A stretch of 64,000 bases of DNA, from the IMG/VR virus record IMGVR_UViG_3300030419_006839, positions 32,001 to 96,000 of that record, one strand, 5' to 3'. The stretch comes from a virus. Of this stretch, positions 46,857 to 63,400 are shown piece after piece. The stretch's first letter is position 1. The number at the start of each line of letters is the position of its first letter. The notes under the pieces were generated by a model. That model was not told the origin of the DNA. It saw nothing but the letters and a program-made list of their open reading frames with translations, and ran no database searches. The position numbers and the translations under genes were made by a program.

Positions 46857-47189
46857 GTGAAAAACAATAGTCGCAAAGAACAATTACGTTCGATGGGTAC
46901 AAGGTATAATCTAAAATCTAATGGTGATTGGAAATACTTTAGGCTTAGACTTAAACCTCACATATTTAATTGGATTTACAAACTAGCCATCGAACAAGAT
47001 GTGTCAATTAATAGAATGATTAATGAACTGTTTGAAACACAAATGAAATTCATGGGATATGTTGCAGATGATGGAGAAGTTATGACTGATCCTCAAGAGG
47101 TCGCTCGACAACTTACTCACGATACTATAACTGATTCCATGAATAACTATTTATCAATGTTAGAAGAACGTAAAAATAAAGAGGTATGA
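46857..47189 (+). CDS. ribbon-helix-helix DNA-binding protein
   Basis: FRLRL...LAIEQDVSINRMI. Confidence 0.6.
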   Translation: MKNNSRKEQLRSMGTRYNLKSNGDWKYFRLRLKPHIFNWIYKLAIEQDVSINRMINELFETQMKFMGYVADDGEVMTDPQEVARQLTHDTITDSMNNYLSMLEERKNKEV

Positions 47190-47782
47190 ATATGAACCAA
47201 GAAAATAAAACAACTACTGCTGAAGAAGTTAAAGCTACGAAACCAAAACGAACTCGTAAGAAAACTCCAAAGAAGTCTGAATTTGAAACTTGCATGGATC
47301 ATGTATTTGAAAATGAGGGAATACTCTCAGACGATCCTGTTGATCGAGGTGGATTAACTAAGTATGGAGTAACAATTTCGACATATAAAAAATATTGGAA
47401 AGATAAAGGCGAAGAGAAAACTGAAGATGATTTGAGAAAAGCCACTAAAGCCGAAGTTCTAGAAATCTATAGGAAAAACTTTTGGGAACCAAGTAGAGTA
47501 GAACAACTACCAAAAGAAATTAGAATGACATATTTCGATATGGTTGTTAATCATGGACAAGGAAATGCCGTTAGAATATTACAAAAAGCCATCAATCTTG
47601 GTAGAATCTCCCTTATCTCAGAAGATGGTTTAATTGGAAAAAACACAATCAGTCACGCTAAGAAGGTCAGTCGAGATAAGTTACAAGCTTCTAGAGCGTT
47701 ATTCTATGCGAATTTGATTGCTCGTAGACCTCAACAGGAGAAATTTTGGCTAGGATGGTATAGACGTTGCAAAAACACTTGA
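47186..47782 (+). CDS. endolysin, glycoside hydrolase family 108 + peptidoglycan-binding domain
   Basis: EG...DPVDRGGLTKYGVT, FDMVVNHG, DGLIGKNT, FWLGW..R. Confidence 0.9.
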   Translation: MNMNQENKTTTAEEVKATKPKRTRKKTPKKSEFETCMDHVFENEGILSDDPVDRGGLTKYGVTISTYKKYWKDKGEEKTEDDLRKATKAEVLEIYRKNFWEPSRVEQLPKEIRMTYFDMVVNHGQGNAVRILQKAINLGRISLISEDGLIGKNTISHAKKVSRDKLQASRALFYANLIARRPQQEKFWLGWYRRCKNT

Positions 47783-47800
47783 TAACGAGTAACTAAACCT

Positions 47801-47901
47801 GCTAATCAGTTATTATTTCTCGATAGCTGGTTAGTAACTGAGCCTATTTGCGTGATCAGTTACGGTTTTATGCTGTAATGCTCATGTAAATGGGCTTTTT
47901 T
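47801..47901 (+). terminator. double long-hairpin terminator / structured 3' RNA
   Basis: 13-bp and 15+7-bp stems rich in G-U pairs, followed by a U-run. Confidence 0.7.
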
Positions 47902-47910
47902 GTTGCCTTG

Positions 47911-48007
47911 AAAAAGAAATGACACAAAGTGTGACGTAAATTTGGGCCAAAAAAGAAAAAACACAAAGTGTGACAAAACTTTTGAGAGTAAAGTGAGATC
48001 AAAATTG
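47911..48007. repeat. direct repeats AAAAGAAA-N2-ACACAAAGTGTGAC (2 copies + 1 degenerate)
   Basis: 47911-47935 and 47950-47974; AAAGTGAGATC near 47990. Confidence 0.7.
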
Positions 48008-48305
48008 CGAGGTGATAACTATTGGGACTAAGAAGACTCTGCGGTGAAAACTAAGCTATGACTGAACTTAACTGGTTATGACTGATAACCTTGTGGAGAA
48101 AAAAGATATTTAATTACACCTTAGTAAGAATTTATAAAAACTCTTTAGTAAAACAACTCCGAAAGACTTTAAACTTTCAAGTTTAATAGACGCATACAAA
48201 ATCAAAAGGTTTAGACTAAATAACAATTTTTTAAAACTTTTTTTATTCCCTGGAGTGCTGGACTGCGAGATCGGTCATTGATGTCATTAGACTCCTCAGT
48301 TAAGA

Positions 48306-48485
48306 TCAGTTATCATCCAGGAGTCTACGTAAGTCCCTCTTAGATCTCATACGATCATATTTTTTCTTGGATTTTAACCGAATTGCACCAGGAGCAATCG
48401 GATGCCTAACCTTTACGCCTGGATTGCTAGACTCAGTAACTGATAGTGATCGGACTGCTTGCTTTTTTCGTTTAGTTCTTTTCAT
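48306..48485 (-). CDS. small basic protein, possibly ribosome-binding (ArfA-like)
   Basis: GGGGG RBS; RHPIAP...KSKKKYDR. Confidence 0.5.
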   Translation of the reverse strand: MKRTKRKKQAVRSLSVTESSNPGVKVRHPIAPGAIRLKSKKKYDRMRSKRDLRRLLDDN

Positions 48486-48605
48486 TTTTTTTAACCCCCT
48501 GTTTTCTGAGAAATCGGTAACTGAGAAATATGCCTTTTTTGGGCTGGACTGCTGGAGTGCTTGGGCTGGAGTGTTAATGTCCCCAAATACATTGAACATT
48601 CGTTA

Positions 48606-50390
48606 TCATAATACATAAAATTCCCCGTCATCGTCATACCATGATGTGTTGTCATTAGTTATAATATTTCTATTTAAAAGCTCTTCTCTGACTTCATGTA
48701 AGCAGAACCCATTAAAAGGATCAAGGCTATCCCCCTTAAGGATAACCTTTTCAGCAAGTGATTTAATTTTACCAGAAAAGGAAAATACTGGAATTGTCTC
48801 AATGTGTTTAATGCATTTCATAATTTTCCCTACTAAAATCCCATGTTTTATCTATGATTAGTTCTTTATACCATTGATCTATGTCAGATGGATGATCTGA
48901 TTCAAACATATAATGAGCGAGAATATCAATTAATTCTTCTCCATTATAGGAATCTATTTCAAATTTCGCTAATGCTTTAGCTTTTCCCCACGTATCTAAC
49001 TTGATTCCCACTTTATATCCTCCTGATTGAAATATTCTCTGGATGTTTCAAGAAAATAATAAATCATATTCCAATCGTCTTGTTTAATTTCATTACCATT
49101 TTCTAATTCTTGAATTAAACAATGTACGCTATTAGCTATGTCTCCAAGACCAAATAAGGTAGTTCCACCTAACATAATTCCCACTTTATAGCCTCCTGAA
49201 TACGTTTTACTTTATCTGGGTCTACATTATTGTTTGTAATTACAGTTGATTTTTCAACTAATTCTGGATATGCGTATAATGCTTTCTTCCATATTGCTTC
49301 AACTAAGAAATCTTCTTCCTCTACGAACTCTTTAGTAGACTGATAGATACAAACGGTGTCTGATATATTATGGTAAATTTCCCAAGCATCTATATCATCA
49401 AAGTACCTTATATCCTTTGATGAATACGATCCATAGTTTAGTATTATCTTGACGCTAATTCCGTCATCTTTTCCAATAGCCATCTGTCTAAGATGTTCTA
49501 CTGATTTTATTGGTATATACTCTGGCATCTATATTTCCTCCTTCAGTAAATTAAGTCTATGTCTTATGATAGAAAATACATCCTTAGTAAAATCACACTT
49601 ACTTATTGGATCATCAGTCAGTAATTTGATAACAGTTTCCGTAGAAACTATGTCAAAGTATTTAAGTAAATCTTCTTCTATTTCCGTTCCTACTTTTGCA
49701 ATTTGGTATTTTGTAAAGGGAATACCTCCAGCCATTTCAATCTACCTCCTCTAAAAAATATTCCTTAACATCTTCTATATTAGATATTACATACCTTATA
49801 CACCATCCAGCTATTTCAATATCATCCCATTCTTCTGGAAAAACATAATCATAATTTTTTAATAACTCATCCATTTCTCTTTTCATTGATATCCTTTCTT
49901 GGTATAATCATACCTGTTTTTGCATCAATAAACCAGAAATCATCTTCACTTATTTCTTTAAAGCCCTGCGGTTTTCCTTGACTTCCTGTGTATTCCTCTA
50001 TCTCGATTATTTCATTTTCTTTATAATCTTCTTCAAAAGGTATTGATTCTGAATAGTTATGTAAAAAGTTAAGAATACTATCTTCAGTTAATTCTTCTCC
50101 ATTTGTTTCAATATACTGAACAGTAAAAAATGGAACTTTATACCAAATATCAACCCTATATTTCATTGTATCTCTCCTGTAACTTTTTGCAGATTAATTG
50201 GACAACCCCTTATTCCATACAGTTCAGAAAAATAATCATCTATGAAATTACGGCAAGATTCAAAAATGTCAGTCTTTATATCATCTTCTCCATATAAACC
50301 TTCTATATCTTCAAGTAGAAAGTATAGTTTTACAATAATGGTTGATTTAACTTCTTCCTTAACCTCTTTACTTTCTAATTGTAAACTCAT
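48606..50390 (-). CDS. operon of about 8 small hypothetical genes (48606-48821, 48808-49011, 48996-49184, 49169-49528, 49529-49735, 49867-50166, 50163-50390 and probably one shorter)
   Basis: Coupled ORFs with AGGAG-type RBSs. Confidence 0.6.
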
Positions 50391-50435
50391 ACATAAACCC
50401 CTTAAAGAAAGGGGGAAATTAATCCCCCAATTGTG

Positions 50436-50813
50436 TTAGATTCTTACTTGTTTCTGTCCACCATAAATACGAACAGCTTGTTTTGTAGCATCTTTTTCTG
50501 ACAAACCTTGTAGCATCAACAATTCTTGTACAGCTTTTGCCTTTGCTATTTCAGGATTTGCCACTCTTAACGCTTCTTTACCAGAACTGTAGAATGTTCC
50601 ATCTTGTTTTGGTGTTTGCATTCTATAATTACTTGGTGAAACTCCAACTAAACTATTAAAGGTTCTGCGATTAACAGCATCAACTTCCTCAACACCACCA
50701 ATACGAAATAGAAAGTCATTAAAAGATCGACTAATTTGCTTTTGAGTTTCAATAGCGGTTACAGGTGTTTGGAATTGATTGGTTACTACGTTGCTGTTAG
50801 TTACATATGTCAT
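50436..50813 (-). CDS. hypothetical early protein
   Basis: AGGAG RBS, own class-1 promoter, GGGGGA/TCCCCC hairpin downstream. Confidence 0.65.
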   Translation of the reverse strand: MTYVTNSNVVTNQFQTPVTAIETQKQISRSFNDFLFRIGGVEEVDAVNRRTFNSLVGVSPSNYRMQTPKQDGTFYSSGKEALRVANPEIAKAKAVQELLMLQGLSEKDATKQAVRIYGGQKQVRI

Positions 50814-51101
50814 ATCAAAATCTCCTATGCCTTATTTGGCATTAATTGTTTAGTGTGTAGGAACAACCTTTGCTCCTACTATATAATATCGACAGTTTCG
50901 AGAAAACTTTAGCGTTTTTTTAAAATTATTTTCAATGATGCGAAAATTCCTACCAAACTCCACCAACTTACAGCAGATAGGAAAATGATAACGATTGCCA
51001 CAATTCCATATGCGACAATTTTAAGCAAGAAATCAAACACATTGTTACTACTCCTTTATTATATAATATCGACAGTTTTGAGAAAACTTTAGAGAAAAAT
51101 A

Positions 51102-51971
51102 TTATAAATCTTCTCTAATTCCAACCATAACAGGAAATCTTGGATAACCATCATCTGTTATTTCTTGATACTTTACAGTTGCAAGTTTTCCAATGTGGTC
51201 ATCTTTATTTTTCCAGTATTCTTTTAATTCCTCCTTTGTTACGGATGGTCTAACCCTAAAGCTAACTTTTCCATCTGTAACTAAAAATGATCCTAAAACA
51301 TTAGGATGGTTATTTTGTTCTACTGCATCGAGTATAGTATATTCGGAATCCTTGAAATATTTATACTTAAAAAGTTGATTACTTCGTTTGTTCTCATATG
51401 GTAAGTTGTCAATTCTTACCATTAAACCCTCATATCCACATTCTATAAAGTCTTGACAATATTTGTCAAACATTTGTAAACCCTTATACGATATATGACC
51501 TAAACTTATTGTCTCTACCGTTTTAATATAAGGACTTATAGATACAGGATGTGTATAAGCTAAACGACTAATTTCTCTTTTCCTGTTACTGAAACTAGAA
51601 TCCATAACAACGTCAAAAACATGAAACTGTATTTCTTTATGGTTGTCATGTAAATTTTTAGTTCGTGAAACAATACTATTTATCTCTGAAAATGTTAATG
51701 ATTCATTGAATAGTTCACCGTCTAACCACTCTAAAGAACGGAATGTGCTTAATTTACCAACTTTAATTAATTCTTGATGTAAATGTGGACAACTTGTAAC
51801 CTCTTTTCCTGAACGTTTGAACATCTTACCATTTTTTAAATTACCAACGACTCTCACACCGTCAAGTTTTGGTTGGACAAACATTTCATGTTGATTGTGT
51901 TCTGTATAACTATTGACTTTTTTACGACTTGATTTATCAGACAAGTCGTGAGCCAACATTGGTTTAATCAT
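51102..51971 (-). CDS. lig: ATP-dependent DNA ligase
   Basis: KPMLA, QPKLDGVR, LDGEL, FHVFD, GYEGLMVR, KRS...KYK, PRFP. Confidence 0.93.
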   Translation of the reverse strand: MIKPMLAHDLSDKSSRKKVNSYTEHNQHEMFVQPKLDGVRVVGNLKNGKMFKRSGKEVTSCPHLHQELIKVGKLSTFRSLEWLDGELFNESLTFSEINSIVSRTKNLHDNHKEIQFHVFDVVMDSSFSNRKREISRLAYTHPVSISPYIKTVETISLGHISYKGLQMFDKYCQDFIECGYEGLMVRIDNLPYENKRSNQLFKYKYFKDSEYTILDAVEQNNHPNVLGSFLVTDGKVSFRVRPSVTKEELKEYWKNKDDHIGKLATVKYQEITDDGYPRFPVMVGIREDL

Positions 51972-52132
51972 TTTTTTCTCCTTCGTCCTATACTATATAA
52001 TATCGACAATTTTGAGAAAACTTTAGCCCTTTTTTGAAAAAAAACCACTTTTTTTTAAATTTATTTTTTCTGGCAATATAGTATTTTTCTTTGATTGGGA
52101 TGGTTGATGGCGTGGGGGCCATTGCGAGGATG

Positions 52133-52426
52133 TTAATCCTCGACAATTTTGTTATAGATTTGATCTACCTTTTCAATTAATAGATTTAGTTTGTGATTTT
52201 CTATACGTTTTAATTCTTCTTGCACATTTCCTACATACTTAGCCTGTAGTTCTTCAATCATATATTCCATACATCCCATAGCATCTAATAATAAAACAAA
52301 ATTATTCATTACTTTTTTTTCAAAGCTTAAATTTGTTTTATCTTTTAATTCTCTGTTTTGTTTTCTTATTTGCCATAGGTCATATACTTCTTGATCTTCT
52401 TTAGATGGTATTGTGTCATTATTCAT
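52133..52426 (-). CDS. hypothetical protein
   Basis: AGGAG RBS. Confidence 0.55.
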   Translation of the reverse strand: MNNDTIPSKEDQEVYDLWQIRKQNRELKDKTNLSFEKKVMNNFVLLLDAMGCMEYMIEELQAKYVGNVQEELKRIENHKLNLLIEKVDQIYNKIVED

Positions 52427-52436
52427 TATTGACTCC

Positions 52437-52877
52437 TTAAGCTGTTGGATATTGTTGAAAAAAGTTAATTTCTAATTGTTTATAATCACCATTAGCTTCC
52501 TTTTTTTTGATCCACTCTTGTTCTTCATTAACAATTTCTGCTATTTTTTCTAAAAATTCTAAGTTATTAAACATATGCGGTTGTTCATATATTGATATAT
52601 TATTTATTTCAATTGGTTTATAACCTTGTAGGTTGATTGTTACATCAACGGAACTAATCGTGCAATCATCATGTTGATGACCGTAATAATTAAATTCTTC
52701 CATAGTAAACATATCTTCGTCAAAATAGTCTATTTCAGGTAAAAAATCTTCAATCTCAAAAGAATCATTGCATTCTAAAGTTCCAGAAACAAGGCTTGAA
52801 ACCTCTGTTCTAAAATGGACTTTATTAATAGTAATGTCTTTAGCACTAATTTCTTGTTTTAATTTTAAATTATCCAT
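52437..52877 (-). CDS. acidic hypothetical protein
   Basis: Coupled ORF. Confidence 0.55.
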   Translation of the reverse strand: MDNLKLKQEISAKDITINKVHFRTEVSSLVSGTLECNDSFEIEDFLPEIDYFDEDMFTMEEFNYYGHQHDDCTISSVDVTINLQGYKPIEINNISIYEQPHMFNNLEFLEKIAEIVNEEQEWIKKKEANGDYKQLEINFFQQYPTA

Positions 52878-53079
52878 AAATATCTAACTTTGCTCCTAAA
52901 TTTGGGTTAGTAGATTTTGCCTTTTTTCTTTCATGTTTTGCTAAATCTAAAGTTGCTTCTATCCTTATTTCTCTTTTTGCATGTTGGATTTCATTGTATA
53001 ATTGAAATTGTTCCAACGTACTAAAGTTTGCTATCCTACTTTGTCTCAAGAATCTTGGATTCATGAATGTAGTTATCAT
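52870..53079 (-). CDS. small protein with YjfB-motility-like C-terminus
   Basis: Ends NPNLGAKLDIYG. Confidence 0.55.
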   Translation of the reverse strand: MITTFMNPRFLRQSRIANFSTLEQFQLYNEIQHAKREIRIEATLDLAKHERKKAKSTNPNLGAKLDIYG

Positions 53080-53336
53080 TACTCACTCCATACTTTAATA
53101 GCATTTGATTTAATCTCTGAAACATAAACATCTCCTAAATCATAACTTCCCCAATTTAAAGGTGATGAAACACCACAAAACCAACGAGCATTTTTATTCT
53201 TTGCTTCATTTGTTGGTGATTGCCATTTTTTTAAAACTTTCCAAGTCCATCCTTCAGCATTTCCAACACCTTTCCATATTTCATATGGTTCGTTTAAATT
53301 TCTAGTTTTTGCACAATAGTTTTTCTCTCTTGCCAT
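53079..53336 (-). CDS. conserved phage early protein
   Basis: PYEIW...WTWKVLK...ARWFC...GDVYVSEI. Confidence 0.6.
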   Translation of the reverse strand: MAREKNYCAKTRNLNEPYEIWKGVGNAEGWTWKVLKKWQSPTNEAKNKNARWFCGVSSPLNWGSYDLGDVYVSEIKSNAIKVWSE

Positions 53337-53512
53337 TCAGTACTCCTTAATTCGTTCTTTGTTCCTATTATATAATATCGACAATTCCTAGAAAACTTTA
53401 GCCTTTTTTTCAAAAAAAGTGCCTTTTTTTTGATTTAATTTTTTCTGTAAAACATTATTACTTTATTATAGGACGTGTTGATGGGCCTGGGGCCATTGAT
53501 TAGGCTAACATT

Positions 53513-53701
53513 TCAGATTCCATAATCATCTAAAAAAGTTTGACATATTACTTGACATAATTCATCTGTCAGTCTGTCTTTGACTGAAGGTCTATTTGAA
53601 TTTTCTTGCTCTAAGTCATCGAGGTAGTCATAACATGAATTAGATAGAACGGTTATAATATCTTCCTGTAGTTGTTCTCTGAGTTCTTTAAGTATTTTCA
53701 T
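53513..53701 (-). CDS. acidic hypothetical protein
   Basis: ORF following the gp88-like gene. Confidence 0.5.
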   Translation of the reverse strand: MKILKELREQLQEDIITVLSNSCYDYLDDLEQENSNRPSVKDRLTDELCQVICQTFLDDYGI

Positions 53702-53704
53702 TGA

Positions 53705-54439
53705 TTATGCCACCTTTCCATACTTTATTTTTTCAATCTGTAATAAATTTTTAGATTCTCCATTTGCTTTAGCTCCATGATATTCGTAAGCTATACATTC
53801 GATATTTTCATTCCAACATGCACGACATTCTTGACATTGACCACCTTGCGAACCACTTGGACAAAAATATATACCACTTTCTTTGTTGTCTTTATGCAAA
53901 CTAAATTCATCTTTAGTTAAGACTACAGAATGTGTTTGATGTTGATTTGGTTTGAATGGTTTATTCTTAAACGGTGAGCTAACTCTAATGGTTAAATTTT
54001 CAGGTTTGTTTACAAACTGTTTTTTATGTTGCCATTCTTTTGTTGGTAGCCAATGGTTTATATGTGGCGTTTTTCTACAAATCTCATATATATCTGATAA
54101 GTGTTGTAAGTCAATAATATCTCCAGCATCAAACCATCTAAAAAATGGAACTCGTTGCATTAATTTTGAATTGTTTAGAATAAAAACTACAGATTCTACC
54201 CATAATTTTCTATTGGATAAATATTTTTGATAACGATTTTCTAACGCATTTTTTACATTAGAAAATTTATATCGTCCATTATCTGCATAACATCCAAAAC
54301 AAGCAGAACCCTCCACTTCGATCAATACAGATCCCGTATCACAATATTCTACTGGAATATTCCATGAAAGTGCTGGCATTTTTCCTGCATCGCTTAATCC
54401 ACCAATATTTTCATTTGCTTGTTTAATTGTAGTTACCAT
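53705..54439 (-). CDS. gp88-like Cys-rich (radical-SAM-related) protein
   Basis: GGLS..GKMP, C..GS.L...GSAC..CYA, FRWFDAGD, HWLPTKE, CP...CQECRACW. Confidence 0.8.
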   Translation of the reverse strand: MVTTIKQANENIGGLSDAGKMPALSWNIPVEYCDTGSVLIEVEGSACFGCYADNGRYKFSNVKNALENRYQKYLSNRKLWVESVVFILNNSKLMQRVPFFRWFDAGDIIDLQHLSDIYEICRKTPHINHWLPTKEWQHKKQFVNKPENLTIRVSSPFKNKPFKPNQHQTHSVVLTKDEFSLHKDNKESGIYFCPSGSQGGQCQECRACWNENIECIAYEYHGAKANGESKNLLQIEKIKYGKVA

Positions 54440-54616
54440 TTTATTCCTTTGTCTTAAGTTTAGGTTAATTGCTTCCTATTATATAATATCGACAATTACT
54501 AGAAAACTTTAGCCCTTTTTGTAAAAAAAGTCACTTTTTTTTGATTTTATTTTTTCCTACAAAGATTGGAATGTTTTGGAAATGGGATGGTGATCTCGCC
54601 TACGGCATTGAGAAGT

Positions 54617-54865
54617 AAAAAAAGCAAGCTACTCGCCCCTCGATGTTTACTTTGAGTCGAAACTCATGACTTATAATCTAAGCCATATTCAACACCTCTT
54701 TGTACTTTCGGAGTTTTCACTTGCCGATGAGAGCAACGTCCAAAGAATGGTAGATCTACGTAGGACTTCTAGAATGTTTTGTAGCGTGGATCAGACGCAT
54801 CACTCATTATGGAATATCCGCATTCGGATCTTACATGCTTTTAAGCTCATCTTTCCTATAGAAAT
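54617..54865 (-). ncRNA. candidate structured ncRNA (~250 nt) downstream of ocr
   Basis: GC-enriched, no sense-strand ORF, at least 7 stems including a UUCG-capped hairpin, possible pseudoknot, terminator GCGAG-UAG-CUUGC-U7. Confidence 0.6.
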
Positions 54866-55285
54866 TTATAAATCCATATGGTAACCGTAATCCTCATCTG
54901 TACCAAAACCTGCAGATGCTAATGCTTCGCCATCATCTGAATAATCATCCACAGTATTTAATGAATCTGTATCATAAAATGCTTGTTGCCACCATGAATT
55001 AACTTGATTTGTTAGTTCCTCATAAATCCTTGCTTGAAGGAATTGAAAAATATTTTCACAACTTGAAATAGAAACAAATCCAGAATCAGATTCAAAACCC
55101 AAATCTGTATCATCTTTTAAGTATTCGATATACTCCCAATTTGATGTTGGCATTTGACGGTCAATTTCTTCAGTAATTAACCTTTCACTGTCAAAAGTAC
55201 TAAATTCTTCAGCACTCATGTTATCAATTTCTGATCTAATTTCATCACAAATATTTTTTGCTAATCTTTCAACTTTAATAGACAT
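54866..55285 (-). CDS. ocr: Ocr (T7 gp0.3-like) DNA-mimic anti-restriction protein with C-terminal extension
   Basis: DLGFESDSG...IFQFLQARIYEELT matches T7 Ocr DLEFEDSG...VIRILQARIYEQLT as recalled; strongly acidic. Confidence 0.85.
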   Translation of the reverse strand: MSIKVERLAKNICDEIRSEIDNMSAEEFSTFDSERLITEEIDRQMPTSNWEYIEYLKDDTDLGFESDSGFVSISSCENIFQFLQARIYEELTNQVNSWWQQAFYDTDSLNTVDDYSDDGEALASAGFGTDEDYGYHMDL

Positions 55286-55288
55286 AAA

Positions 55289-55492
55289 TTAAACTCCTAA
55301 AAAAATTTCATCTTGACAAGTTTGACACAAACCAGAAATTCTATATTCTTTTTTTGATATATCATCTCTGAAATTTAGATTTACTTTGTGTGGTTCTTTT
55401 GAAACACAAGAATTGTTAGTAATTGATTCTGTTCTATCAAATAGAGAATCTAAAAATATTTCAATTGGTCTTGATTTTTTAGTTGGTTTCAT
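55289..55492 (-). CDS. conserved small phage protein with CxxC
   Basis: FRDDISKKEYRISGLCQTCQDEIF. Confidence 0.65.
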   Translation of the reverse strand: MKPTKKSRPIEIFLDSLFDRTESITNNSCVSKEPHKVNLNFRDDISKKEYRISGLCQTCQDEIFLGV

Positions 55493-55681
55493 AACTTACC
55501 TCTATTATATAATATCGACAGTTTCAAGAAAACTTTAGGAAAAAATCAATTATTTTTTGAAAAAAACTGATTTTTTTTTCTTCAATTTTTGATTCTTTCT
55601 TTTTATATCTGACACCTGTATGTAGATTCAAATCTTCACTTTTTAGCTTTCTATTGACATTATCTGATCGCTTAAATTTTG

Positions 55682-55831
55682 TCATTCAGCTTTACCAAGT
55701 TTTATGTTGCCGTTGCTTTCCTCTACTTTTGGATCATCATCTTTTTTGAGTTTGGCTCGTTTGATTCTTGCTTTGTGCCTTGCAAGTCTAATTCGTTTTT
55801 TACGATTCTGTAATTTTCTAGTGTGTTTCAT
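55682..55831 (-). CDS. small highly basic protein (MKHTRKLQNRKKRIRLARHKARIK...), absent from the ORF track
   Basis: GAGG RBS directly after a class-1 promoter. Confidence 0.6.
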   Translation of the reverse strand: MKHTRKLQNRKKRIRLARHKARIKRAKLKKDDDPKVEESNGNIKLGKAE

Positions 55832-55987
55832 ATTTCCTCTTTACCTCTATTATATAATATCGACAATTTTGAGAAAACTTTAGCCCTTTTTGTAAAAAAA
55901 AGCAACTTTTTTTTGATTTAATTTTTTCTGAGAATACCATAAACCTGTGTTATACCTGCATTGGTGTGTTGGAATACATTGAGAACC

Positions 55988-56203
55988 TTATACATTCCAC
56001 CCGTTTAATCTTAAATCGTTTAAATGTGATTGTAAAGGTTCCAATGTATCAGTATTTACTGTTATTATATGGTTGGTTTCAACGACTAAAACATCGCATT
56101 CTTGTTTTGACTTACCAGAAAAAGTATTTATTTTTTTTCTGGTAAATTCACGAATGGATACATTTTTATTTATTGCTTTACAAAAGTGTGTTGCTACTTT
56201 CAT
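55988..56203 (-). CDS. hypothetical protein
   Basis: AGGAG RBS. Confidence 0.55.
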   Translation of the reverse strand: MKVATHFCKAINKNVSIREFTRKKINTFSGKSKQECDVLVVETNHIITVNTDTLEPLQSHLNDLRLNGWNV

Positions 56204-56622
56204 TAGAAACTCCTAACAAAATCATGGAAGTCATACGTTGATAATAATTGAGTCATTCTTTTTTCTATTTCTGTTGCGTGTATAATATCAGCAAATTTTA
56301 GGTTTTCCATTATTCGATGATATGCAACTATTGGAGGAATACTGTTGTCTAAATTATCATACATTAAATTAAAATCTTCCTTCAATTCTGAAATTTGTTC
56401 TTTTGTTAGTTTGTTTTCCCATTCTCCAAGCTTCATTCTTTTATTTAAGCTACCGCTTTTTGAGAATGATAACATTGTGTCAATCCTTACCTTTGAGGCT
56501 TTTCTGGTTAAATCATTTTTTTGTTCTTTAGTAAATGATTTTGACACACCATCTAAAACTTTAGAAATAAACTCTTTTGAAATGTTTACTTGTTGGTTTG
56601 TTAGATCTGCTAAATTTTGCAT
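56203..56622 (-). CDS. hypothetical early protein
   Basis: GAGGT RBS after a class-1 promoter. Confidence 0.6.
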   Translation of the reverse strand: MQNLADLTNQQVNISKEFISKVLDGVSKSFTKEQKNDLTRKASKVRIDTMLSFSKSGSLNKRMKLGEWENKLTKEQISELKEDFNLMYDNLDNSIPPIVAYHRIMENLKFADIIHATEIEKRMTQLLSTYDFHDFVRSF

Positions 56623-56696
56623 GTTTACCTCTTTTGTATACTATATAATATCGACAGCTTTGATGGAAACTTTAGGAAAAAAGTGATTTTTTTTTG

Positions 56697-56852
56697 CCCC
56701 ATTTTTTGAAAAGTTGGCACGATTTATAATCACTTTTTTGCTTTGAATCATTTTTTGAATCTTGAAACCCTTGCTATTACTCGCTTTGGCGAGATTGCAA
56801 ATCCCCTTTTTTCTTTTCACCCTCAAAGAAAGAAAAAAGGGGTTTGTAATAA
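56697..56852. repeat. 156-bp hairpin repeat, copy 1
   Basis: Aligns without gaps to 58042-58197 and 59456-59611. Confidence 0.9.
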
Positions 56853-56888
56853 CCTGTAGTTATACAGTTAAGATTAAATCTAACTGAC

Positions 56889-57560
56889 TTAATTTAATAA
56901 GTCAGTTAGTTTATTATCCCATAAAATAGTTGACAATCTTGATGCTATTTCATATATATGTTCTTCCGCACAATCATTTCCATTTTCGTTTTCCTGAAAT
57001 TTATATTCACAAAATTCCACATAATTATCATATTCTACCTCTAATAAATAAGTTAGTATAGTTTGTATATCAATTGATATATCAAAAATTAAATTAGATC
57101 TTTCTTGTTCAGTCATTTTCTTCTACTATTTCACTCCATAAAGAAATAAAATTTTCAGACTCATAATACATAGATTTATATAGCAAGTCTTGTATTTCAT
57201 CAATTGGATTACTTGAAGTTTCAATAATCCATCTTGCTATTTTTTCTAACTGTTTGTCATTGTATGGTTCTTTCATAATTATATACCCATAATCCACTTA
57301 TCTAAAGCATAATTAAATTTATTCTTTTCTTTTATTGGATCAATTCCAACCTTATGAAAAGTGTAGTTTACTGAATCATCCATATAGTCATAATACGTTT
57401 GTTGATTGTCAAACTTTGGTGATTTTCTCTCATTATTATAAGAATTACAAGCTTCATTAAAACCATTGAAAATATCTTGAAAAATAGTGTTTTTGGTTGA
57501 AAGTTCTTTACCGTTCCAAATTACTTTTGGCATTCTAATATTCTCCTTCAAATCTCTCAT
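56889..57560 (-). CDS. three small hypothetical genes (56889-57116, 57109-57297, 57279-57560)
   Basis: Coupled ORFs. Confidence 0.55.
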
Positions 57561-57756
57561 CTTTAATCATTGTTGCTTGAAATTTTGGGTCTAATTTCAT
57601 ATAGATAGTTTTAGGTTTTGACGGTTGTGCAAGATACATCTTGCCATCATCATCAATAAATAAAACCTTAAACCAAATTCCGAGAATTTTAACTTCGTAA
57701 TTTTCCATATTAGTAATTTACCTCTAATATATAATATCGACAGTTTTGAGAAAACT

Positions 57757-57918
57757 TTAGCTTTTTTTGATAAAGTTTTTTCCTAAAGTTTCGTAAACTC
57801 TTTTCATAAATTTTTCACGATTTTTTCTATATTCCTTAATTCTTTTCTGTTCTTTAGTTAAACCAATAACATCAATTTTTTCGTGTAAGTTATGAGGGAT
57901 TGTTTTAATAATATTCAA
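57757..57918 (-). CDS. paralogue of 58864-59022 (TTG start, 53 aa), absent from the ORF track
   Basis: IIKTIPHNLHEKIDVIGLTKEQKRIKEYRKNREKFMKRVYETLGKNFIKKS. Confidence 0.65.
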   Translation of the reverse strand: MNIIKTIPHNLHEKIDVIGLTKEQKRIKEYRKNREKFMKRVYETLGKNFIKKS

Positions 57919-58041
57919 GTTGTTACCCTATTGGTAAAATATTCTGGTTTAAATTTCTTGCATCTAAAACTTGTCGGTTCACAATGCACCACTTTCTATA
58001 AATATCAGTTTTTTGGATAGTAAGTTTTTTAATTTTTCTTA

Positions 58042-58197
58042 CCCCATTTTCTGGAAAGTTGGCATGATTTATAATCGCTTTTTTGCTTTGAATCATCTTT
58101 TGAATCCTTCAACCCTTGCTATCATTGGGTTTGAGGAGATTGCAAATCCCCTTTTTTCTTTTCACCCTTAAAGAAAGAAAAAAGGGGTTTGTAATAA
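58042..58197. repeat. 156-bp hairpin repeat, copy 2
   Basis: See copy 1. Confidence 0.9.
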
Positions 58198-58232
58198 GGT
58201 AGAGAAGGGCAGTTAAGCCCAACTCTATTGAT

Positions 58233-58637
58233 TTACTTATCTATAGTCATTTTTATTGTAGCAATATATACAACACCACTTTTATCAGTTTCTAGTTGTT
58301 GTGTTTCAACCCTTGATTTTTTTAGGGTATTTGTTTGCAAATAATCAGCTAATTCTGTTCTTGCCATATGTTTTGCTTTATTTATAGCAAGTTGTACATT
58401 TCTACTTCTAGCCTGTTTTATAGTTGTTATTTTCTTTGGTGTTTCTATCACTTTAGTTGTTGGTTCTAAAGGCATATTAATATTTTTAGAAGAACATCCA
58501 GAAACACATAAAAAAACTATACCTAAAATTAATATTGAACCTAAAACAAAAACTGTTTCGATTGCATCCTTAATATCATCTTTAATGCTTGTTCTAATTT
58601 CTTGGTTTTGCAATTGATTTCCTTGATACATTTTCAT
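58233..58637 (-). CDS. LPP20-like lipoprotein
   Basis: VSGC lipobox; AINKAKHMARTELA. Confidence 0.6.
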   Translation of the reverse strand: MKMYQGNQLQNQEIRTSIKDDIKDAIETVFVLGSILILGIVFLCVSGCSSKNINMPLEPTTKVIETPKKITTIKQARSRNVQLAINKAKHMARTELADYLQTNTLKKSRVETQQLETDKSGVVYIATIKMTIDK

Positions 58638-58648
58638 ATTGCTTCCTC

Positions 58649-58855
58649 TTATCTAATCCAGTTTGGGTTATCTTTATAGTGAAATGATTTTTTCCAATCC
58701 TCAAATTTTTCTGCTTGTTTGTCTATTTCATAATCTTCTATTGCATCCCATAATCCTTCAACTATATCATGGAAAATATTTTTTTCATTTTTTGGCCTTA
58801 ATTTTCCATTCCAATTAATTTCTAAATTGTTAGTAATCCCTTCTATTTTATACAT
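58649..58855 (-). CDS. hypothetical protein; paralogue of 57279-57560
   Basis: WNGK...KNIFHDIVEG vs WNGK...KNTIFQDIFNG. Confidence 0.6.
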   Translation of the reverse strand: MYKIEGITNNLEINWNGKLRPKNEKNIFHDIVEGLWDAIEDYEIDKQAEKFEDWKKSFHYKDNPNWIR

Positions 58856-58863
58856 TGTTATTC

Positions 58864-59022
58864 CTATTTTATAAAGTTTTTTCCTAAAGTTTCGTAAACT
58901 CTTTTCATAAAGTTCTCACGATTTTGTTGATATTTCTTGATTCTCTTTTGTTCTTTAGACAAACCAATAACATCAATTTTTTCGTGTAATTTGTGGGGTA
59001 TCGTTTCAATAATTTTCATATT
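58864..59022 (-). CDS. small basic early protein
   Basis: MKIIETIPHKLHEKID... after a class-1 promoter; 5' coordinate approximate. Confidence 0.55.
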   Translation of the reverse strand, partial: NMKIIETIPHKLHEKIDVIGLSKEQKRIKKYQQNRENFMKRVYETLGKNFIK

Positions 59023-59079
59023 TTCCCTTTGTTCTCTACTATATAATATCGACAGTTTCAAGAAAACTTTAGTAGTTTT

Positions 59080-59346
59080 TTACAATGAAATGTAACTTTT
59101 TGATGAATTAAATAACCAATTTTCAACTAGAAACTTATCAATTAGATTATTTCTATATGCGTTTAGAAATTCCTCATCAGTTACAGATAACAAACAATCA
59201 TCCCATGCAAAAAAAGTATTTTCACCATCTTCTATTTCATAAACTCCATTTTCCCTATCTATTTTCGTGATAGCATAATAACGACTTTTTCGGTCTATGT
59301 TTCTAGTTGGAATGGTTTTTACGATTTGGCGAATGCTGTGGTTCAT
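59080..59346 (-). CDS. hypothetical early protein
   Basis: GAGG RBS after a class-1 promoter. Confidence 0.6.
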   Translation of the reverse strand: MNHSIRQIVKTIPTRNIDRKSRYYAITKIDRENGVYEIEDGENTFFAWDDCLLSVTDEEFLNAYRNNLIDKFLVENWLFNSSKSYISL

Positions 59347-59455
59347 AATTGTATTTCCTCTTATACTATATAATATCGACAGTTTCTAAAAAACTTTAGA
59401 AAAAAAAACAACTTTTTCAAAAAATTTTCCAAAGTAAAAAAATAATTTTTCACAC

Positions 59456-59611
59456 CCCCATTTTCTGGAAAGTTGGCACGATTTATATTTGTTTTTTTGC
59501 TTTGGAACATTTTTTGAATCTCTAAACCCTTGCTATCACTGGCTTTGCCGTGATTGCAAATCCCTTTTTTTCTTCTCACCTATAGAGGAAGAAAAAAGGG
59601 GTTTGTAATAA
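59456..59611. repeat. 156-bp hairpin repeat, copy 3
   Basis: See copy 1. Confidence 0.9.
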
Positions 59612-59758
59612 GCTACCCTAACACAGTATATCCACATTCTCACTTATAGATATATACACATCTTTTTACTTCTTGCAAATTTAATTATGTTTTGTTATTA
59701 TTTGCAAATAAACTTAATACTAGTTGTAAGTGTTAAGACATTTAATAAAGAGGTTTTT

Positions 59759-60073
59759 ATGAGTTTTGAAGAAAAAATAGAGTCTTATGAGAAGATTACT
59801 AAGAAGTTAGAGAAATATGATAGTCCTGATTTTAATTTGACAAAAGAATTTTTCAAAGAAATGAATTTTAATTTTAAAGAAGGGTGTGAGATATTTTATT
59901 CTAGTGAGTCTGGTGATAAAAAAAACTTAAAACGTGCAGAAAGGAAGTTAGATAGAGCGATTAGATCTGCTGAAAAACTAGAGAGTATTTTGTCTAGTCA
60001 GCAAAAGAGTTTCAGAAAAACTGTAATCAATTCTAGTAAGGAAAAAGAAAAATCTACTGGACAGACTTTTTGA
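59759..60073 (+). CDS. hypothetical protein
   Basis: GAGGT RBS; upstream TTGCAA-N17-TATTAT sigma70-like site. Confidence 0.6.
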   Translation: MSFEEKIESYEKITKKLEKYDSPDFNLTKEFFKEMNFNFKEGCEIFYSSESGDKKNLKRAERKLDRAIRSAEKLESILSSQQKSFRKTVINSSKEKEKSTGQTF

Positions 60074-60079
60074 TAAACT

Positions 60080-60112
60080 AATCATATGTGGGAATAACAC
60101 CCACATATGATT
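60080..60112. terminator. perfect 13-bp inverted repeat between convergent genes
   Basis: AATCATATGTGGG-N7-CCCACATATGATT. Confidence 0.75.
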
Positions 60113-60588
60113 TAACCTCCCTTCATTATGTTTATCTTCTCTTGATACGTTAATTTTTCCCACAACTCTTTTTTATCATTTTTATCTTTTTCTTTACCTG
60201 AAACAATTTCTATTAGGCTTTTGTTTTTTTCATCCTTTATTGTACTCAGAAATTCACATTTATATATCTTTACCTCAGTACGAGAACTTGGTTGTAGGAA
60301 AAATAAAGTTGAATCAGTTCTTAATGGGTATTCTGGATGTAAGTAATTGATAGTCTTTCCTTTGCTTTTTATATCCACCTCTATAGTCTTTTTAATATTG
60401 TTATGTAGCCACTTGTTTTCTATATCAAAACCTACGACCACATTACTCTTGTAGTTAGATATATTGGACAACTCATTTTCAAGAACACATCTGTTGATTT
60501 TAATGATAAAAGTTTTTTTGTATGCATTAACAAACTCATCTAGATCAAATAGATTAATATTAAATCTATCAGTAAACACGTATTTCAT
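60112..60588 (-). CDS. hypothetical protein
   Basis: AAGGAG RBS, class-2 promoter. Confidence 0.6.
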   Translation of the reverse strand: MKYVFTDRFNINLFDLDEFVNAYKKTFIIKINRCVLENELSNISNYKSNVVVGFDIENKWLHNNIKKTIEVDIKSKGKTINYLHPEYPLRTDSTLFFLQPSSRTEVKIYKCEFLSTIKDEKNKSLIEIVSGKEKDKNDKKELWEKLTYQEKINIMKGG

Positions 60589-60625
60589 TTATTTACACGA
60601 CTCCTTCATATTAATTTACATAGTA

Positions 60626-60670
60626 AATAACACAATTATAGATAAAATATTTACTAAAAACTATGTTATA
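60626..60670. promoter_or_regulatory. overlapping divergent class-2 promoters
   Basis: (-) AGTAAA-N16-GTGTTATT at 60626-60655; (+) GATAAA-N16-ATGTTATA at 60641-60670. Confidence 0.6.
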
Positions 60671-60838
60671 TATATTATTAAAACAAATATTTATAAAAAA
60701 AAGTAAATTTAAAACAAACTCTCCTGAAAAGATGGTGCTGTGAAAAAATATTTGATTTTGGATATAGGCTTATACGCTTTTTTCTCCGAAATTGTTTTTT
60801 ACTCTTTTTAGGAGTTGATGTCATAGGAGTACAAGTAA

Positions 60839-61390
60839 ATGCAAGATAATGGGTATAGAAAATCATATTTTGAAGGATATTTGTCAGCTTATAATGATCT
60901 AATAACTAAAAAAATCAATAGAAAAAAAGTTTCTAAGTTTATAACAGAAATGAAAGAATGGTCAGGTGTTGAGTTTGATGTGTCTAGATTAAATAGAATA
61001 AAAGAAATGCAAATACCTTCTATAGAAAGATCTAAATCTTATAGAGAAGTGGATCTTAAACCAGGATTTGTTTATTTTGTAAGAAAAAGAGGTACTGATG
61101 AAATTAAGATTGGTCATACAGTTAATATTAAGAGTAGGATGCAAAGTATAAAGACAGGTGTAACGGGAGAATTAGAATTAATTTTTAAGGAAACCTGGGA
61201 GTATAATAATTCTAAAAGTGGATCGTATTGGGCAAAATATTCAGAGAAAAATTACCATTCTCTCTTTTCTAGTTATAGAATAAAAAGAGAATGGTTTTTA
61301 CTGCCAAATATAGATAATTATATTTCTGGATCTTTGTTCAATAAGAAAGAATATGTTTCTAGCCTACAAAGTAATGACCCTAGAAGTTAG
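60839..61390 (+). CDS. T5orf172/MUG113 GIY-YIG-domain protein
   Basis: GFVYFV...IKIGHT...SRMQSIKTG...EKNYH...REWF. Confidence 0.85.
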   Translation: MQDNGYRKSYFEGYLSAYNDLITKKINRKKVSKFITEMKEWSGVEFDVSRLNRIKEMQIPSIERSKSYREVDLKPGFVYFVRKRGTDEIKIGHTVNIKSRMQSIKTGVTGELELIFKETWEYNNSKSGSYWAKYSEKNYHSLFSSYRIKREWFLLPNIDNYISGSLFNKKEYVSSLQSNDPRS

Positions 61391-61393
61391 GGT

Positions 61394-61594
61394 CTAACTT
61401 GTTATAGAATCAATTATTTTTTGAATGATTTTTTCAGTTAGGGTATCTATAAACTCATCTGTTTCATCCATTAATTTTTCTAGAACCATTTCAACGACTT
61501 TTTCTACTAATTCGTCACCTTGATCCTGAATTTCACTTACAACTTCATCTTTTAGCTTACCAGCTAAACTACTAGCTAAATCTCCAAATCCCAT
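61394..61594 (-). CDS. small acidic helical protein
   Basis: AGGAGGT RBS. Confidence 0.6.
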   Translation of the reverse strand: MGFGDLASSLAGKLKDEVVSEIQDQGDELVEKVVEMVLEKLMDETDEFIDTLTEKIIQKIIDSITS

Positions 61595-61604
61595 TACTTA
61601 CCTC

Positions 61605-62216
61605 CTATATTGATATAGAAAAATCTTTTTCTTTTTTTACATGTATTACATGATCTGCATGTATTTGTATGTCTTGTTTATGAGAAACCATTATGATTTG
61701 AATACCCAATCTTTCACAAATTTCGCTAATAAAGCTAGATGCGTTTTCCAGGTACTCCAAACTAAGAAACTTCAAAGGCTCATCCAAGATTATTATTTTA
61801 GATGAATTTTGAAGATGAATAAAAATAATACGAACAACTAAGGAAATTATATCGTTTATACCACCTCCTGATGATTTTTGTGGTGAAACTTCAATACCCT
61901 CCTCTGTTAAAAACACCTCTACGGCAGGTTGATTCCTGTATGTAGAAATTTTTATGTTGAAAATTATATCCTTTTCAAATATTTTACTTAAAGCTTCTGT
62001 GATTAGTGAGTTGAAGATTGAACAGATTTGACCTCTGTATTTTTCTGAAACAGCGATTAAAAAATTCTTTAATTCTTCGTATGTTTTGTCTAAGTTTTCT
62101 AATTCGGAAAGGTTTGTTTCATATCGAGTAACTGATTTTGATAACTCACCAATCTCTCTTTCATGTAGGTTAACTTCATTCAAGATATTATTGAGTTTAA
62201 TTTTTAAATTTTTCAT
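61605..62216 (-). CDS. SbcC/Rad50-like ATPase, C-terminal half only
   Basis: Coiled coil, signature SSGGG, Walker B IILDEP, H-loop MVSH; no Walker A. Confidence 0.85.
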   Translation of the reverse strand: MKNLKIKLNNILNEVNLHEREIGELSKSVTRYETNLSELENLDKTYEELKNFLIAVSEKYRGQICSIFNSLITEALSKIFEKDIIFNIKISTYRNQPAVEVFLTEEGIEVSPQKSSGGGINDIISLVVRIIFIHLQNSSKIIILDEPLKFLSLEYLENASSFISEICERLGIQIIMVSHKQDIQIHADHVIHVKKEKDFSISI

Positions 62217-62224
62217 ATTGATAT

Positions 62225-62250
62225 AAAAAAAGCCCACCATTTCGGTGGGC
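62225..62250 (-). terminator. intrinsic terminator after the SSB gene
   Basis: GCCCACC-GAAAT-GGTGGGC-T7. Confidence 0.85.
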
Positions 62251-62263
62251 AATTATTAGTTTT

Positions 62264-63142
62264 TTAGAAAGGTGAATCGTCTGATGCTGAATCAGAAGAT
62301 ATTTTATCTTGCATCATCTTCTTCAAATCAGCAGAAACATTATCGAAAGAACTAGAGTTGGAATCGTTATTATTAAAACCATTACCATTTTGACTTCCAC
62401 GATCTTCATGGACACCAGTTAGGTACTCTATTATCTCATCTCTAGTTCTGATTCGATAATAATCCTCTAGGTTAATAGAGTTGTTTTTAACTAAGTCAGA
62501 TTCTTCAGGACTTAGTGGTGATTCGTTTTTACCTGCAATAATTTCAAATTTCTGACCACCGAATCTATCAGGGTGGTACTTCAACAATAAATCATAACCA
62601 GACTTATCATCAGATGGATCTCCTCTATAAGACTCACTTAAAAAGTCTGCATTAGGGTCACTTTCAGAAGGAGGAGTTGCCATTTCTACTAACTCATTAA
62701 ATGGTGATTTCCTAAATCCAATAATACCCATCAATTCCTCTGGTGGTAAGCTTGACTTCTGTGCCATTCGGTCAATACAATTAATAGACGCTTGAAAAGT
62801 AGCTCTAGATGGTGTTGCATCCTTACCCCAAGAAGGAGGAGGCTGTTTAAACGAGCAAAAACCTAAATCTGAGTGCTTTTCACCTTTTAGCTGAAGGTCA
62901 TATACTTCATCAATTGGACACTTTCCATCTATACGAAGTATAGTAGATCCACTATAGTCATAATTTATACATGGAATAACAATAGTAACTGATGTTCCCG
63001 TTGTCTTCTCAACTTCAATGAAATGTAGTTGTCTTCGTACAATATCTCCTACTAGTCTTACTCTTGGATTTTTTTTCCAATCAATAAAGTTTGCCTTTGG
63101 TAAACTACCTGTGTTTTCAGCTTTAAGTTGTCCTAATTTCAT
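62264..63142 (-). CDS. gp32-like single-stranded DNA-binding protein
   Basis: RVRLV...HF...C...CPID, DP.D.KSGYDL, acidic tail ending DDSPF. Confidence 0.75.
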   Translation of the reverse strand: MKLGQLKAENTGSLPKANFIDWKKNPRVRLVGDIVRRQLHFIEVEKTTGTSVTIVIPCINYDYSGSTILRIDGKCPIDEVYDLQLKGEKHSDLGFCSFKQPPPSWGKDATPSRATFQASINCIDRMAQKSSLPPEELMGIIGFRKSPFNELVEMATPPSESDPNADFLSESYRGDPSDDKSGYDLLLKYHPDRFGGQKFEIIAGKNESPLSPEESDLVKNNSINLEDYYRIRTRDEIIEYLTGVHEDRGSQNGNGFNNNDSNSSSFDNVSADLKKMMQDKISSDSASDDSPF

Positions 63143-63210
63143 TTTTTCATTTCTCCATTTAATTTTAATTATTTTTGTTTTTAATTGGCTTAATTGCCTT
63201 ACAATTTAAA

Positions 63211-63236
63211 TTATCGACTGTTTTTAGTTAACTTTA
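63211..63236 (-). promoter_or_regulatory. class-1 sigma28-like promoter for the SSB gene
   Basis: TAAA-N14-GTCGATAA. Confidence 0.65.
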
Positions 63237-63247
63237 ATTTTTTTATT

Positions 63248-63362: not shown

Positions 63363-63400
63363 TATATAACGTGATTTATGTTTGTTTATTTACTAAATAT

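Follow-up and report, generated by a model that had tools for sequence, protein, structure and literature searches.

What reads the motif that is repeated ahead of the presumed early genes of an uncultured phage of about 105 kb? The window analysed here, a stretch of 64,000 nucleotides (nt), corresponds to bases 32001-96000 of one 104,851-bp viral contig of the IMG/VR database (IMGVR_UViG_3300030419_006839). An original prediction, made from the letters alone, had pointed to a sequence of the form TAAA-N14-GTCGATA(T/A), here called the class-1 motif, as a promoter resembling those of sigma-28 (FliA/SigD), the sigma factor of flagellar genes. We looked at the copies of this motif, at the genes that follow them and at the proteins that could act on them. 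Coordinates are those of the window unless marked genome (L003:3360-3719 is genome 98360-98719); the contig is estimated by CheckV to be 73% complete, with about 27% missing. The comparisons support the reading of class 1 as a predicted bipartite promoter of the sigma-28 type, with a -35 element cTAAAGTT, a 10-bp spacer (11 bp once) and a -10 element GTCGATA(T/A), and the reader that we favour, by a small measure, is the flagellar sigma factor of the host.

The pattern TAAA-N13-16-GTCGATA occurs 15 times in the window, where 0.09 copies are expected (shuffled sequences, maximum 2), and 17 times in the whole contig, the two additional copies lying at genome 7885-7909(-) and 103656-103680(+). 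Eleven copies form an array on the minus strand, from 50887 to 59398, with spacings of 180-1375 bp. The counts first given for the early region and for the window were reproduced, as was the spacing, N14 in all copies except that at 56649-56674, which has N15. For the block GTCGATAW alone we counted 16 occurrences, with 1.5 expected. No copy (0/17) deviates at any of the 14 core bases, TAAAGTT and GTCGATA, and the near-misses in the 105 kb amount to one site with 1 mismatch and two with 2, all three within coding DNA. Every one of the 17 copies is intergenic and co-oriented with the downstream gene, whose start codon comes 20-76 nt after GTCGATAW.

Comparing the copies with each other, we found that those of the early array are near-identical over about 38 bp, with the consensus cTAAAGTTTTCTnnAAAyTGTCGATATTATATArTA, whereas the six dispersed copies agree in nothing but the two blocks and the length of the spacer. 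This pattern points to bipartite recognition and not to one long site. An A5-7 tract, often with a T-tract upstream, ends 3-4 nt before the -35 element in about 10 of the 17 copies (by eye). These tracts resemble UP elements, and as such they argue for a bacterial multisubunit RNA polymerase. Transcription is predicted to start at the 7th base after GTCGATAT, the only variable position of an otherwise invariant early tail; this base is a purine in 10/11 early copies and a T in the 57735 copy.

The published consensus of sigma-28 promoters is TAAAGTTT-n11-GCCGATAA (PMC2859248), GCCGATAA being the E. coli form. The -35 octamer TAAAGTTT is matched at 8/8 positions in the 11 early copies, and its TAAAGTT is invariant in 17/17. 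For the -10 octamer the match is 7/8 when the last position is read as A/T, and 6/8 when GTCGATAT is compared with GCCGATAA literally. Taking both octamers together, 15/16 positions fit sigma-28, the single departure being a C to T change at the second -10 position: GTCGATA(T/A), with its CGATA core intact, is present in 17/17 copies and the GCCGATA form in 0/17. The octamers are separated by 10 bp in 16/17 copies and by 11 bp in one, compared with 11 bp in the consensus. In open-access papers we found no mutational data on how far this spacer may vary. The shorter spacer and the C>T change that had been noted at the outset thus hold for 16/17 and 17/17 copies, respectively.

Such a variant form is also found in bacteria. 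We looked for the exact form TAAAGTTT-N10-GTCGATAT in a set of prokaryotic genomes with one per species, and inspected ten matches at promoter distance from a gene. It lies 40 nt upstream of a Geobacillus flagellin gene, 46 nt upstream of a Paenibacillus flaG and 59 nt upstream of a motA, and also before OmpA-family genes in two Vibrio genomes, which might be MotY-like. FliA/SigD scored above the curated cut-off in 5/5 of those genomes. The class-1 copies share with the class-3 flagellar promoters read by bacterial sigma-28 factors (FliA, SigD, WhiG) the -35 octamer and the CGATA(A/T) core of the -10; both are bipartite and stringent, have a short spacer and are preceded by A-tracts resembling UP elements, such as the B. 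subtilis hag promoter reportedly has. They differ from them by the T at the second -10 position and the 10-bp spacer, and by the genes that they precede, which are anti-restriction, ligase and replication genes. Bipartite organization, the occurrences at flagellar genes and a lack of sigma-70 sites before the early genes all speak for the promoter class originally proposed for the early region.

We then scanned IMG/VR for the canonical form, TAAAGTT-N12-GCCGATAW, and five contigs with clustered sites, G006-G010, were among the matches listed. The sites number 8 in G007 (35 kb), 5 in G008, 3 plus one GTCGATA variant in G006, 3 in G010 and 2 in G009, and a control pattern read backwards gave 0 matches in the same contigs. 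These contigs carry the same promoter type as our phage in 2-8 copies, theirs being canonical, cTAAAGTTTT-N11-GCCGATA. In those inspected, the sites are co-oriented, and each is followed after 20-40 nt by a Shine-Dalgarno sequence and an ATG. The five contigs span 32-55% G+C, and G006, G007, G009 and G010 have hardly any genes in common with the phage studied here (G008 was left out of this comparison). G008, a complete genome of 236 kb, has its own FliA-like sigma factor, and no sigma factor is detectable in G009 (118 kb, complete, with terminal repeats). Judging from these motifs, sigma-28-type promoters seem to recur in uncultured phages.

Which genes stand behind the class-1 copies? The first copy of the early array, 59374-59398(-), is separated from its start codon by 27 nt counted from GTCGATAT. 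It is followed along the minus strand by copies at 59047-59071(-), at 57735-57759(-), where a Shine-Dalgarno sequence begins 10 nt after GTCGATAT, at 56649-56674(-), the sole N15 copy, and at 55858-55882(-). The next one, 55513-55537(-), heads a transcription unit with an ocr-like gene (54866-55285(-)), whose acidic product (pI 4.05, 23.7% Asp+Glu) is a candidate early anti-restriction protein. Farther on, 54487-54511(-) stands before a GP88-family gene (53705-54439), 53376-53400(-) follows it, and 52001-52025(-) precedes an ATP-dependent DNA ligase gene (51102-51971). The last two copies are at 51067-51091(-) and 50887-50911(-), the latter heading small minus-strand open reading frames (ORFs) that extend to about 48306.

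Outside the array, the copy at 22763-22787(+) precedes the DnaE gene, confirmed at 22853-26065, and that at 29222-29246(+) is followed, by position, by the 66-codon ORF at 29288, both as originally described. The gene behind the copy at 43303-43327(+), originally called ssb, is that of a phrog_624 DNA-binding protein. The copy at 63212-63236(-) lies before an ORF of 292 amino acids (aa) and an SbcC-like ATPase; the label of glycosylase once given to the 292-aa ORF could not be confirmed, as this ORF has no PHROG, Pfam or PDB match. Targets of dispersed copies also include the helicase-primase operon and a sigma-like gene, P0148, to which we return below.

Looking upstream of the early copies, we observed that four of them share about 55 nt of extra sequence (minus strand, 52026-52075, 53401-53450, 54512-54561 and 55883-55932). 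In this block an A8-loop-T8 hairpin is followed by an A6-7 tract, and together with the promoter the block makes a cassette of about 95 nt, as at the 55858 and 53376 copies. As RNA the four hairpins are weak, with -4 to -5 kcal/mol. A8/T8 hairpins were tried as terminators and rejected (-4 to -8.5 kcal/mol, z-scores no better than -1.6); those of the cassettes are more suggestive of UP elements or of scars left by duplication. They recall the promoter/stem-loop (PeSL) cassettes of T4-type phages, which Arbiol and colleagues are said to have described in 2010: in both cases an A/T stem-loop with an early promoter is repeated and flanks small ORFs of little-known function in a plastic early region. 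Here, however, the promoter is of the sigma-28 type and not of the sigma-70 type, and the stem-loops are weak, with A-U pairs only. Another inverted repeat, AGTTT(T)-N3-5-(A)AAACT, runs across the -35 element and the spacer; it was seen by eye in 7-9 of the 11 early copies and is present in 0/6 dispersed ones, and similar repeats are present in some sigma-28-type promoters of the unrelated contigs G007 and G008.

The possible dependence on the flagellar sigma factor of the host, which the original prediction had raised, appears strengthened by two genes that the phage itself carries, one FlgM-like and the other for a flagellin. The Pfam FlgM model (PF04316) matches genome 98411-98527(-) with an E value of 2e-8 and 31.7 bits (cut-off 25). 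The corresponding protein, P0147, has 119 aa and is encoded at genome 98360-98719(-), equivalent to 66360-66719 and 2.4 kb past the window end, between two terminase-like ORFs in a minus-strand exonuclease-to-portal operon. When the protein was scanned directly, FlgM was matched at residues 65-103 (E 3e-7, 30.9 bits) and IF2_N at residues 1-48 (E 7e-9); a hydrophobic tail forms the C-terminal end. Alignment with four bacterial FlgM proteins showed the motif R-E-x-x-L/V...Y-x-I/V-D...A-E-K to be present. Of 14 control genomes, those of E. coli, B. subtilis and Thermotoga were alone in matching the FlgM model at E <= 0.001; G006-G010 gave no FlgM match.

Sigma-28 and FlgM form a complex whose structure is available for Aquifex (1RP3/1SC5), and it is the N-terminal region of FlgM that permits its export via the flagellar apparatus. 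P0147 keeps the C-terminal sigma-28-binding helices of bacterial FlgM, and differs from it by IF2_N in place of the N-terminal part, by the added hydrophobic tail and by its neighbourhood of phage terminase genes. Its N-terminal half, which corresponds to the export region, gave no alignment with the bacterial FlgM proteins. P0147 is thus a FlgM-like candidate anti-sigma-28 factor, sigma-28 being its presumed binding target, and it is expected to be non-exportable, as it is without the usual FlgM N-terminal part.

Around P0147, beyond the window, two ORFs of 332 aa (L003:2365-3363(-)) and 264 aa (L003:4082-4876(-)) each carry part of the similarity to the terminase large subunit, and two small ORFs, one of them the FlgM-like gene, stand between them. 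The arrangement may reflect a split gene, what remains of an intron or intein, or two distinct genes.

The phage flagellin gene is located at 38358-39290(+), and its product matches both Flagellin_N (E 1.9e-14) and Flagellin_C (E 8.7e-13). GTDB genomes yielded no close relative of it. In the ESM Atlas, the clusters nearest to it come from Poribacteria, Bdellovibrionota and Pseudomonadota, which serves as a host lead only.

Besides class 1, the contig contains a second motif, tAGTAAA-N16-18-YGTTAT (class 2), of which 8 exact copies occur where 0.54 would be expected, along with an AGTTAT variant. Each of them is intergenic and co-oriented. Their targets are the gene of ribonucleotide reductase, a gene of the tail module (533-561(+)), hsp20, the thymidylate synthase operon (40286-40314(+)), a 158-aa ORF at 60112-60588 (60627-60655(-)) and the 292-aa ORF (63366-63394(-), 130 nt upstream of the 63212 class-1 copy). 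The promoter directed toward hsp20 (gene at 39642-40058(-)) is at 40244-40272(-). Another class-2 copy precedes the exonuclease-to-portal operon that contains the FlgM-like gene, and the sites outside the window are at genome 7843(-), 7909(+) and 103613(-). At DnaE and at the helicase-primase operon, class 2 stands in tandem with class 1, 5-14 nt behind it; before DnaE this copy (22792-22819(+), AGTAAA-N16-TGTTAT) comes 5 nt after the class-1 promoter. The class-2 elements may loosely resemble extracytoplasmic function (ECF)-type promoters, by comparison with the B. subtilis sigma-W consensus.

What could read class 2? P0148, a sigma-like protein of 246 aa (genome 103716-104456(+)), is encoded 35 nt behind the class-1 copy at genome 103656, and class 1 is its only visible promoter. 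In the ESM Atlas it scores 0.96 to viral Sigma70_r2/r4_2 clusters, the ten best family-bearing matches all belonging to that family or clan. A region 4 match was not found. An hhalign comparison with five FliA proteins aligned region 2 only, with 0.4% probability, and the FliA/WhiG model TIGR02479 gave no match at E <= 10 in a six-frame search which does detect the sigma factor of G008. P0148, which is not FliA-like, may be a very divergent sigma factor, although the case for this is thin.

Putting these elements together, we arrive at a cascade to which we give a little more than an even chance, in which host sigma-28 reads class 1, a phage sigma factor reads class 2, and the phage FlgM shuts off class 1. 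The host multisubunit RNA polymerase with the host flagellar sigma factor would read class 1, and the 11 strong, near-identical copies would fire when the DNA enters a flagellated cell. About 11 short units of 180-1375 bp would be expressed from them, with small genes that include those of the ocr-like DNA mimic and of the DNA ligase. The dispersed copies would turn on DnaE, the helicase-primase operon, the DNA-binding protein, and the 292-aa ORF with the SbcC-like ATPase, as well as the 66-codon ORF and, just outside the window, P0148. The latter would then probably read class 2, and with it the genes for replication, ribonucleotide reductase, thymidylate synthase, Hsp20, the tail and the exonuclease-terminase-portal operon. 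From this last operon P0147 would be made, which would sequester sigma-28 and so end the expression of both class 1 and the late flagellar genes of the host, and make core polymerase available to class 2. That promoters of both classes stand in tandem at replication genes would fit genes that are needed in both phases. The reader of class 1, the start site, the timing of the two classes, the pairing of P0148 with class 2 and the binding target of P0147 are points that we infer.

Several observations weigh against this cascade. The T-for-C change is uniform (17/17) and the shorter spacer nearly so (16/17), and a dedicated phage factor would give the same. A completeness of 73% leaves room for a FliA-like sigma factor in the absent part of the genome, and the unrelated jumbo phage G008, whose sigma-28 promoters are canonical, does have one of its own. 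As for P0148, its match to Sigma70_r2 (E 0.041, 14 bits) is under the cut-off of 24, no homologue but itself was found among 5.8 billion proteins, there was no PHROG or PDB match, and its single-sequence AlphaFold2 model was unusable, with a predicted local distance difference test score of 41. Finally, the ocr-like match is weak (E 2.8e-6), and "early" is deduced from gene content and architecture.

Most of these points bear on the strongest competing explanation, namely that a sigma factor encoded by the phage, either a FliA-like one in the absent 27% or P0148, reads class 1; we regard it as unlikely, yet as one to be taken seriously. In that case the 11 promoters would mark a middle class and not the first and, as part of the same unlikely reading, the FlgM-like protein would serve the phage as partner anti-sigma factor, the phage having captured a sigma-28/FlgM module and running a timer independent of host flagellation. 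That 17 copies share their departures from the consensus, without degenerate copies, is what one usually sees with a dedicated factor; the position of a sigma-like gene directly behind one of them would allow autoregulation; and to the incompleteness of the contig is added the example of G008, with five canonical promoters and its own sigma factor (Sigma70_r2 E 4e-10, FliA-like region 4 E 2e-7). However, six-frame searches of the 105 kb for a FliA-like sigma factor or an RNA polymerase, as called for at the outset, gave no FliA, ECF, Sigma70_r2/r4 or T7-type match. The alternative that the phage brings its own sigma-28-like factor thus stands only in part: a sigma-like protein is present, but it lacks kinship to FliA, and a second promoter class, which needs a reader, is available to it. 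Moreover, P0148, with class 1 as its only visible promoter, would be unable to initiate its own expression. Gene orientation at the two contig ends suggests that the absent part continues the plus-strand block into head genes and is not early-like, and an ocr-like gene is expected in the very first class to be transcribed.

Could the housekeeping sigma factor of the host be used instead? Sigma-70/sigma-A would take the TATTAT/TATAAT-like tail of the early copies as its -10 sequence, and the conserved blocks would be activator or repressor sites, a situation that the original prediction had named as contradicting it and that we find very improbable. TATTAT does overlap GTCGATAT in the early copies, with TATAAT/TATAGT 3 nt further, and the UP-element-like A-tracts would be compatible with any bacterial holoenzyme. 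Nevertheless, the six dispersed copies do not keep this tail, whereas TAAAGTT and GTCGATA are invariant in them; there is no extended -10 TG, and the -35 window, TAAAGT or TTTTCT, matches at only 2-3 of 6 positions. Four early copies have a Shine-Dalgarno sequence that starts only 10 nt past GTCGATAT, so that transcription set by the tail would begin inside or beyond it and the transcript would lose its ribosome-binding site. Between 47000 and 64000 sigma-70-like sites show no enrichment (77 against 87 expected), and contig-wide those with at least 10/12 positions number 47 against 103 in shuffles, about half. Only four of the sites in the contig precede genes, none of them in the early region.

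A phage or virion RNA polymerase (T7-, N4-, crAss- or YonO-type) that recognises the block of about 38 bp is an even fainter prospect. Under this explanation, the AGTTT-N-AAACT repeat might act as a hairpin promoter in the style of N4. It draws on the conservation of the early copies, which runs from the -35 element past the predicted start as in promoters of single-subunit polymerases, on the 5-6 bp inverted repeat in 7-9 of the 11 copies (by eye), and on an ORF of 3318 aa that is largely without assignment. This ORF, however, comes after the tape-measure gene, at the place expected of a tail-tip protein; it is Ser-, Asn- and Thr-rich and gave tail-fibre matches; a DxDGD-type motif was found neither in it nor in the other large ORFs without assignment. 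The T7-type model matched nothing in the contig, a weak negative as it is silent in control genomes too. The dispersed copies, in addition, keep only the two sigma-28-like blocks, without the inverted repeat.

Least credible of all is a mere operator, protein-binding or recombination site without a transcription start, also foreseen as a way in which the prediction could fail: the very high identity among the copies and the cassette of about 95 nt common to four of them, which suggests spread by duplication or recombination, would suit it, but the core is non-palindromic, the co-orientation of 17/17 copies, each with a start codon 20-76 nt away, has a chance of about 8e-6, and the identical form stands before bacterial flagellin, flaG and motA genes.

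The cascade proposed here, with host sigma-28 at its start, can be compared with those of SPO1 (gp28, gp33/34) and T4 (AsiA/MotA, gp55), in which sigma and anti-sigma factors of the phage succeed one another and AsiA targets sigma-70. Here too, early genes would be read by a host holoenzyme, a phage sigma factor would redirect the core enzyme and an anti-sigma factor would silence the first class, and strong early promoters are likewise dense before small genes of host takeover. In contrast to SPO1 and T4, the proposed first sigma factor is the flagellar and not the housekeeping one, and the anti-sigma factor is a homologue of the cell's own FlgM.

The contig otherwise has the gene set of a tailed phage, with 31.7% G+C and no terminal repeats. 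By a crude gene call about 95% of it is ORF, and a strong GGAG-type Shine-Dalgarno sequence precedes nearly all genes. Structural and packaging genes comprise those of the major capsid protein, the portal, terminase-like ORFs and the tail tube, together with a tape-measure protein of 1995 aa and fibre proteins of 1058, 1811, 2223 and 3318 aa. For replication and repair there are a DnaE-type polymerase, a DnaB-like helicase, a primase, an ATP-dependent ligase, exonucleases and a Holliday-junction resolvase, and for nucleotide metabolism a class II ribonucleotide reductase, thymidylate synthase and a deoxynucleoside monophosphate kinase. The endolysin combines GH108 and PG_binding_3, a pairing that in our experience presumably indicates a Gram-negative host; its relatives are marine (TARA), the nearest named organism being Gracilimonas. 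In the window we also noted a gene for a NifU/Fe-S cluster assembly protein at 34045-34617(+) and an HNH-type homing-endonuclease-like ORF at 60839-61390(+), on the opposite strand inside a minus-strand block. No tRNA was found in the window, and an Rfam scan of 47000-64000 returned 0 known RNA families.

The phage is without a close relative in GenBank phages, IMG/VR and GTDB genomes. Among GenBank phages (megablast, tblastn) the best DnaE identity was only 33%, and IMG/VR, searched with DnaE or with an alignment of its family, gave at most 34%. Overly general DnaE patterns run on GTDB genomes and one metagenome returned generic bacterial DnaE only. DnaE relatives at 44-51% identity and one twin at 96% were found in ENA, JGI and Logan. 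Scanning IMG/VR with the class-1 motif gave 0 matches for the strict form and then 50 single, chance-like matches, and in 12 candidate host genomes the motif counts were without enrichment.

To our knowledge, well-studied phages carry out early transcription via the housekeeping sigma factor of the host or an injected polymerase, and we found no report of a phage using sigma-28 promoters or a phage FlgM in open-access full texts and preprints. Tentatively, and with a confidence somewhat short of even, we see in this phage, taken to be virulent and marine, a timer built on the flagellar checkpoint of its host, with a start by sigma-28, a sigma factor of its own and a shut-off by a FlgM derivative. 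Under this tentative reading, the phage may commit only in cells with a finished flagellum, the flagellum may be its receptor too, and P0147 would end early transcription and host flagellar synthesis together. If true, a start via the flagellar sigma factor would tie infection to a motile host, one in which the hook-basal body is done and FlgM has been exported. Phages would then have a novel means of sensing the state of their host, and the early phase would be ended with a homologue of the cell's own anti-sigma factor. The 17 perfect sites give a very sharp definition of a predicted sigma-28-type promoter that might serve as a compact and strong cassette, and the canonical clusters in unrelated metagenomic phages suggest that the strategy may be widespread and have been missed by sigma-70-centred prediction.

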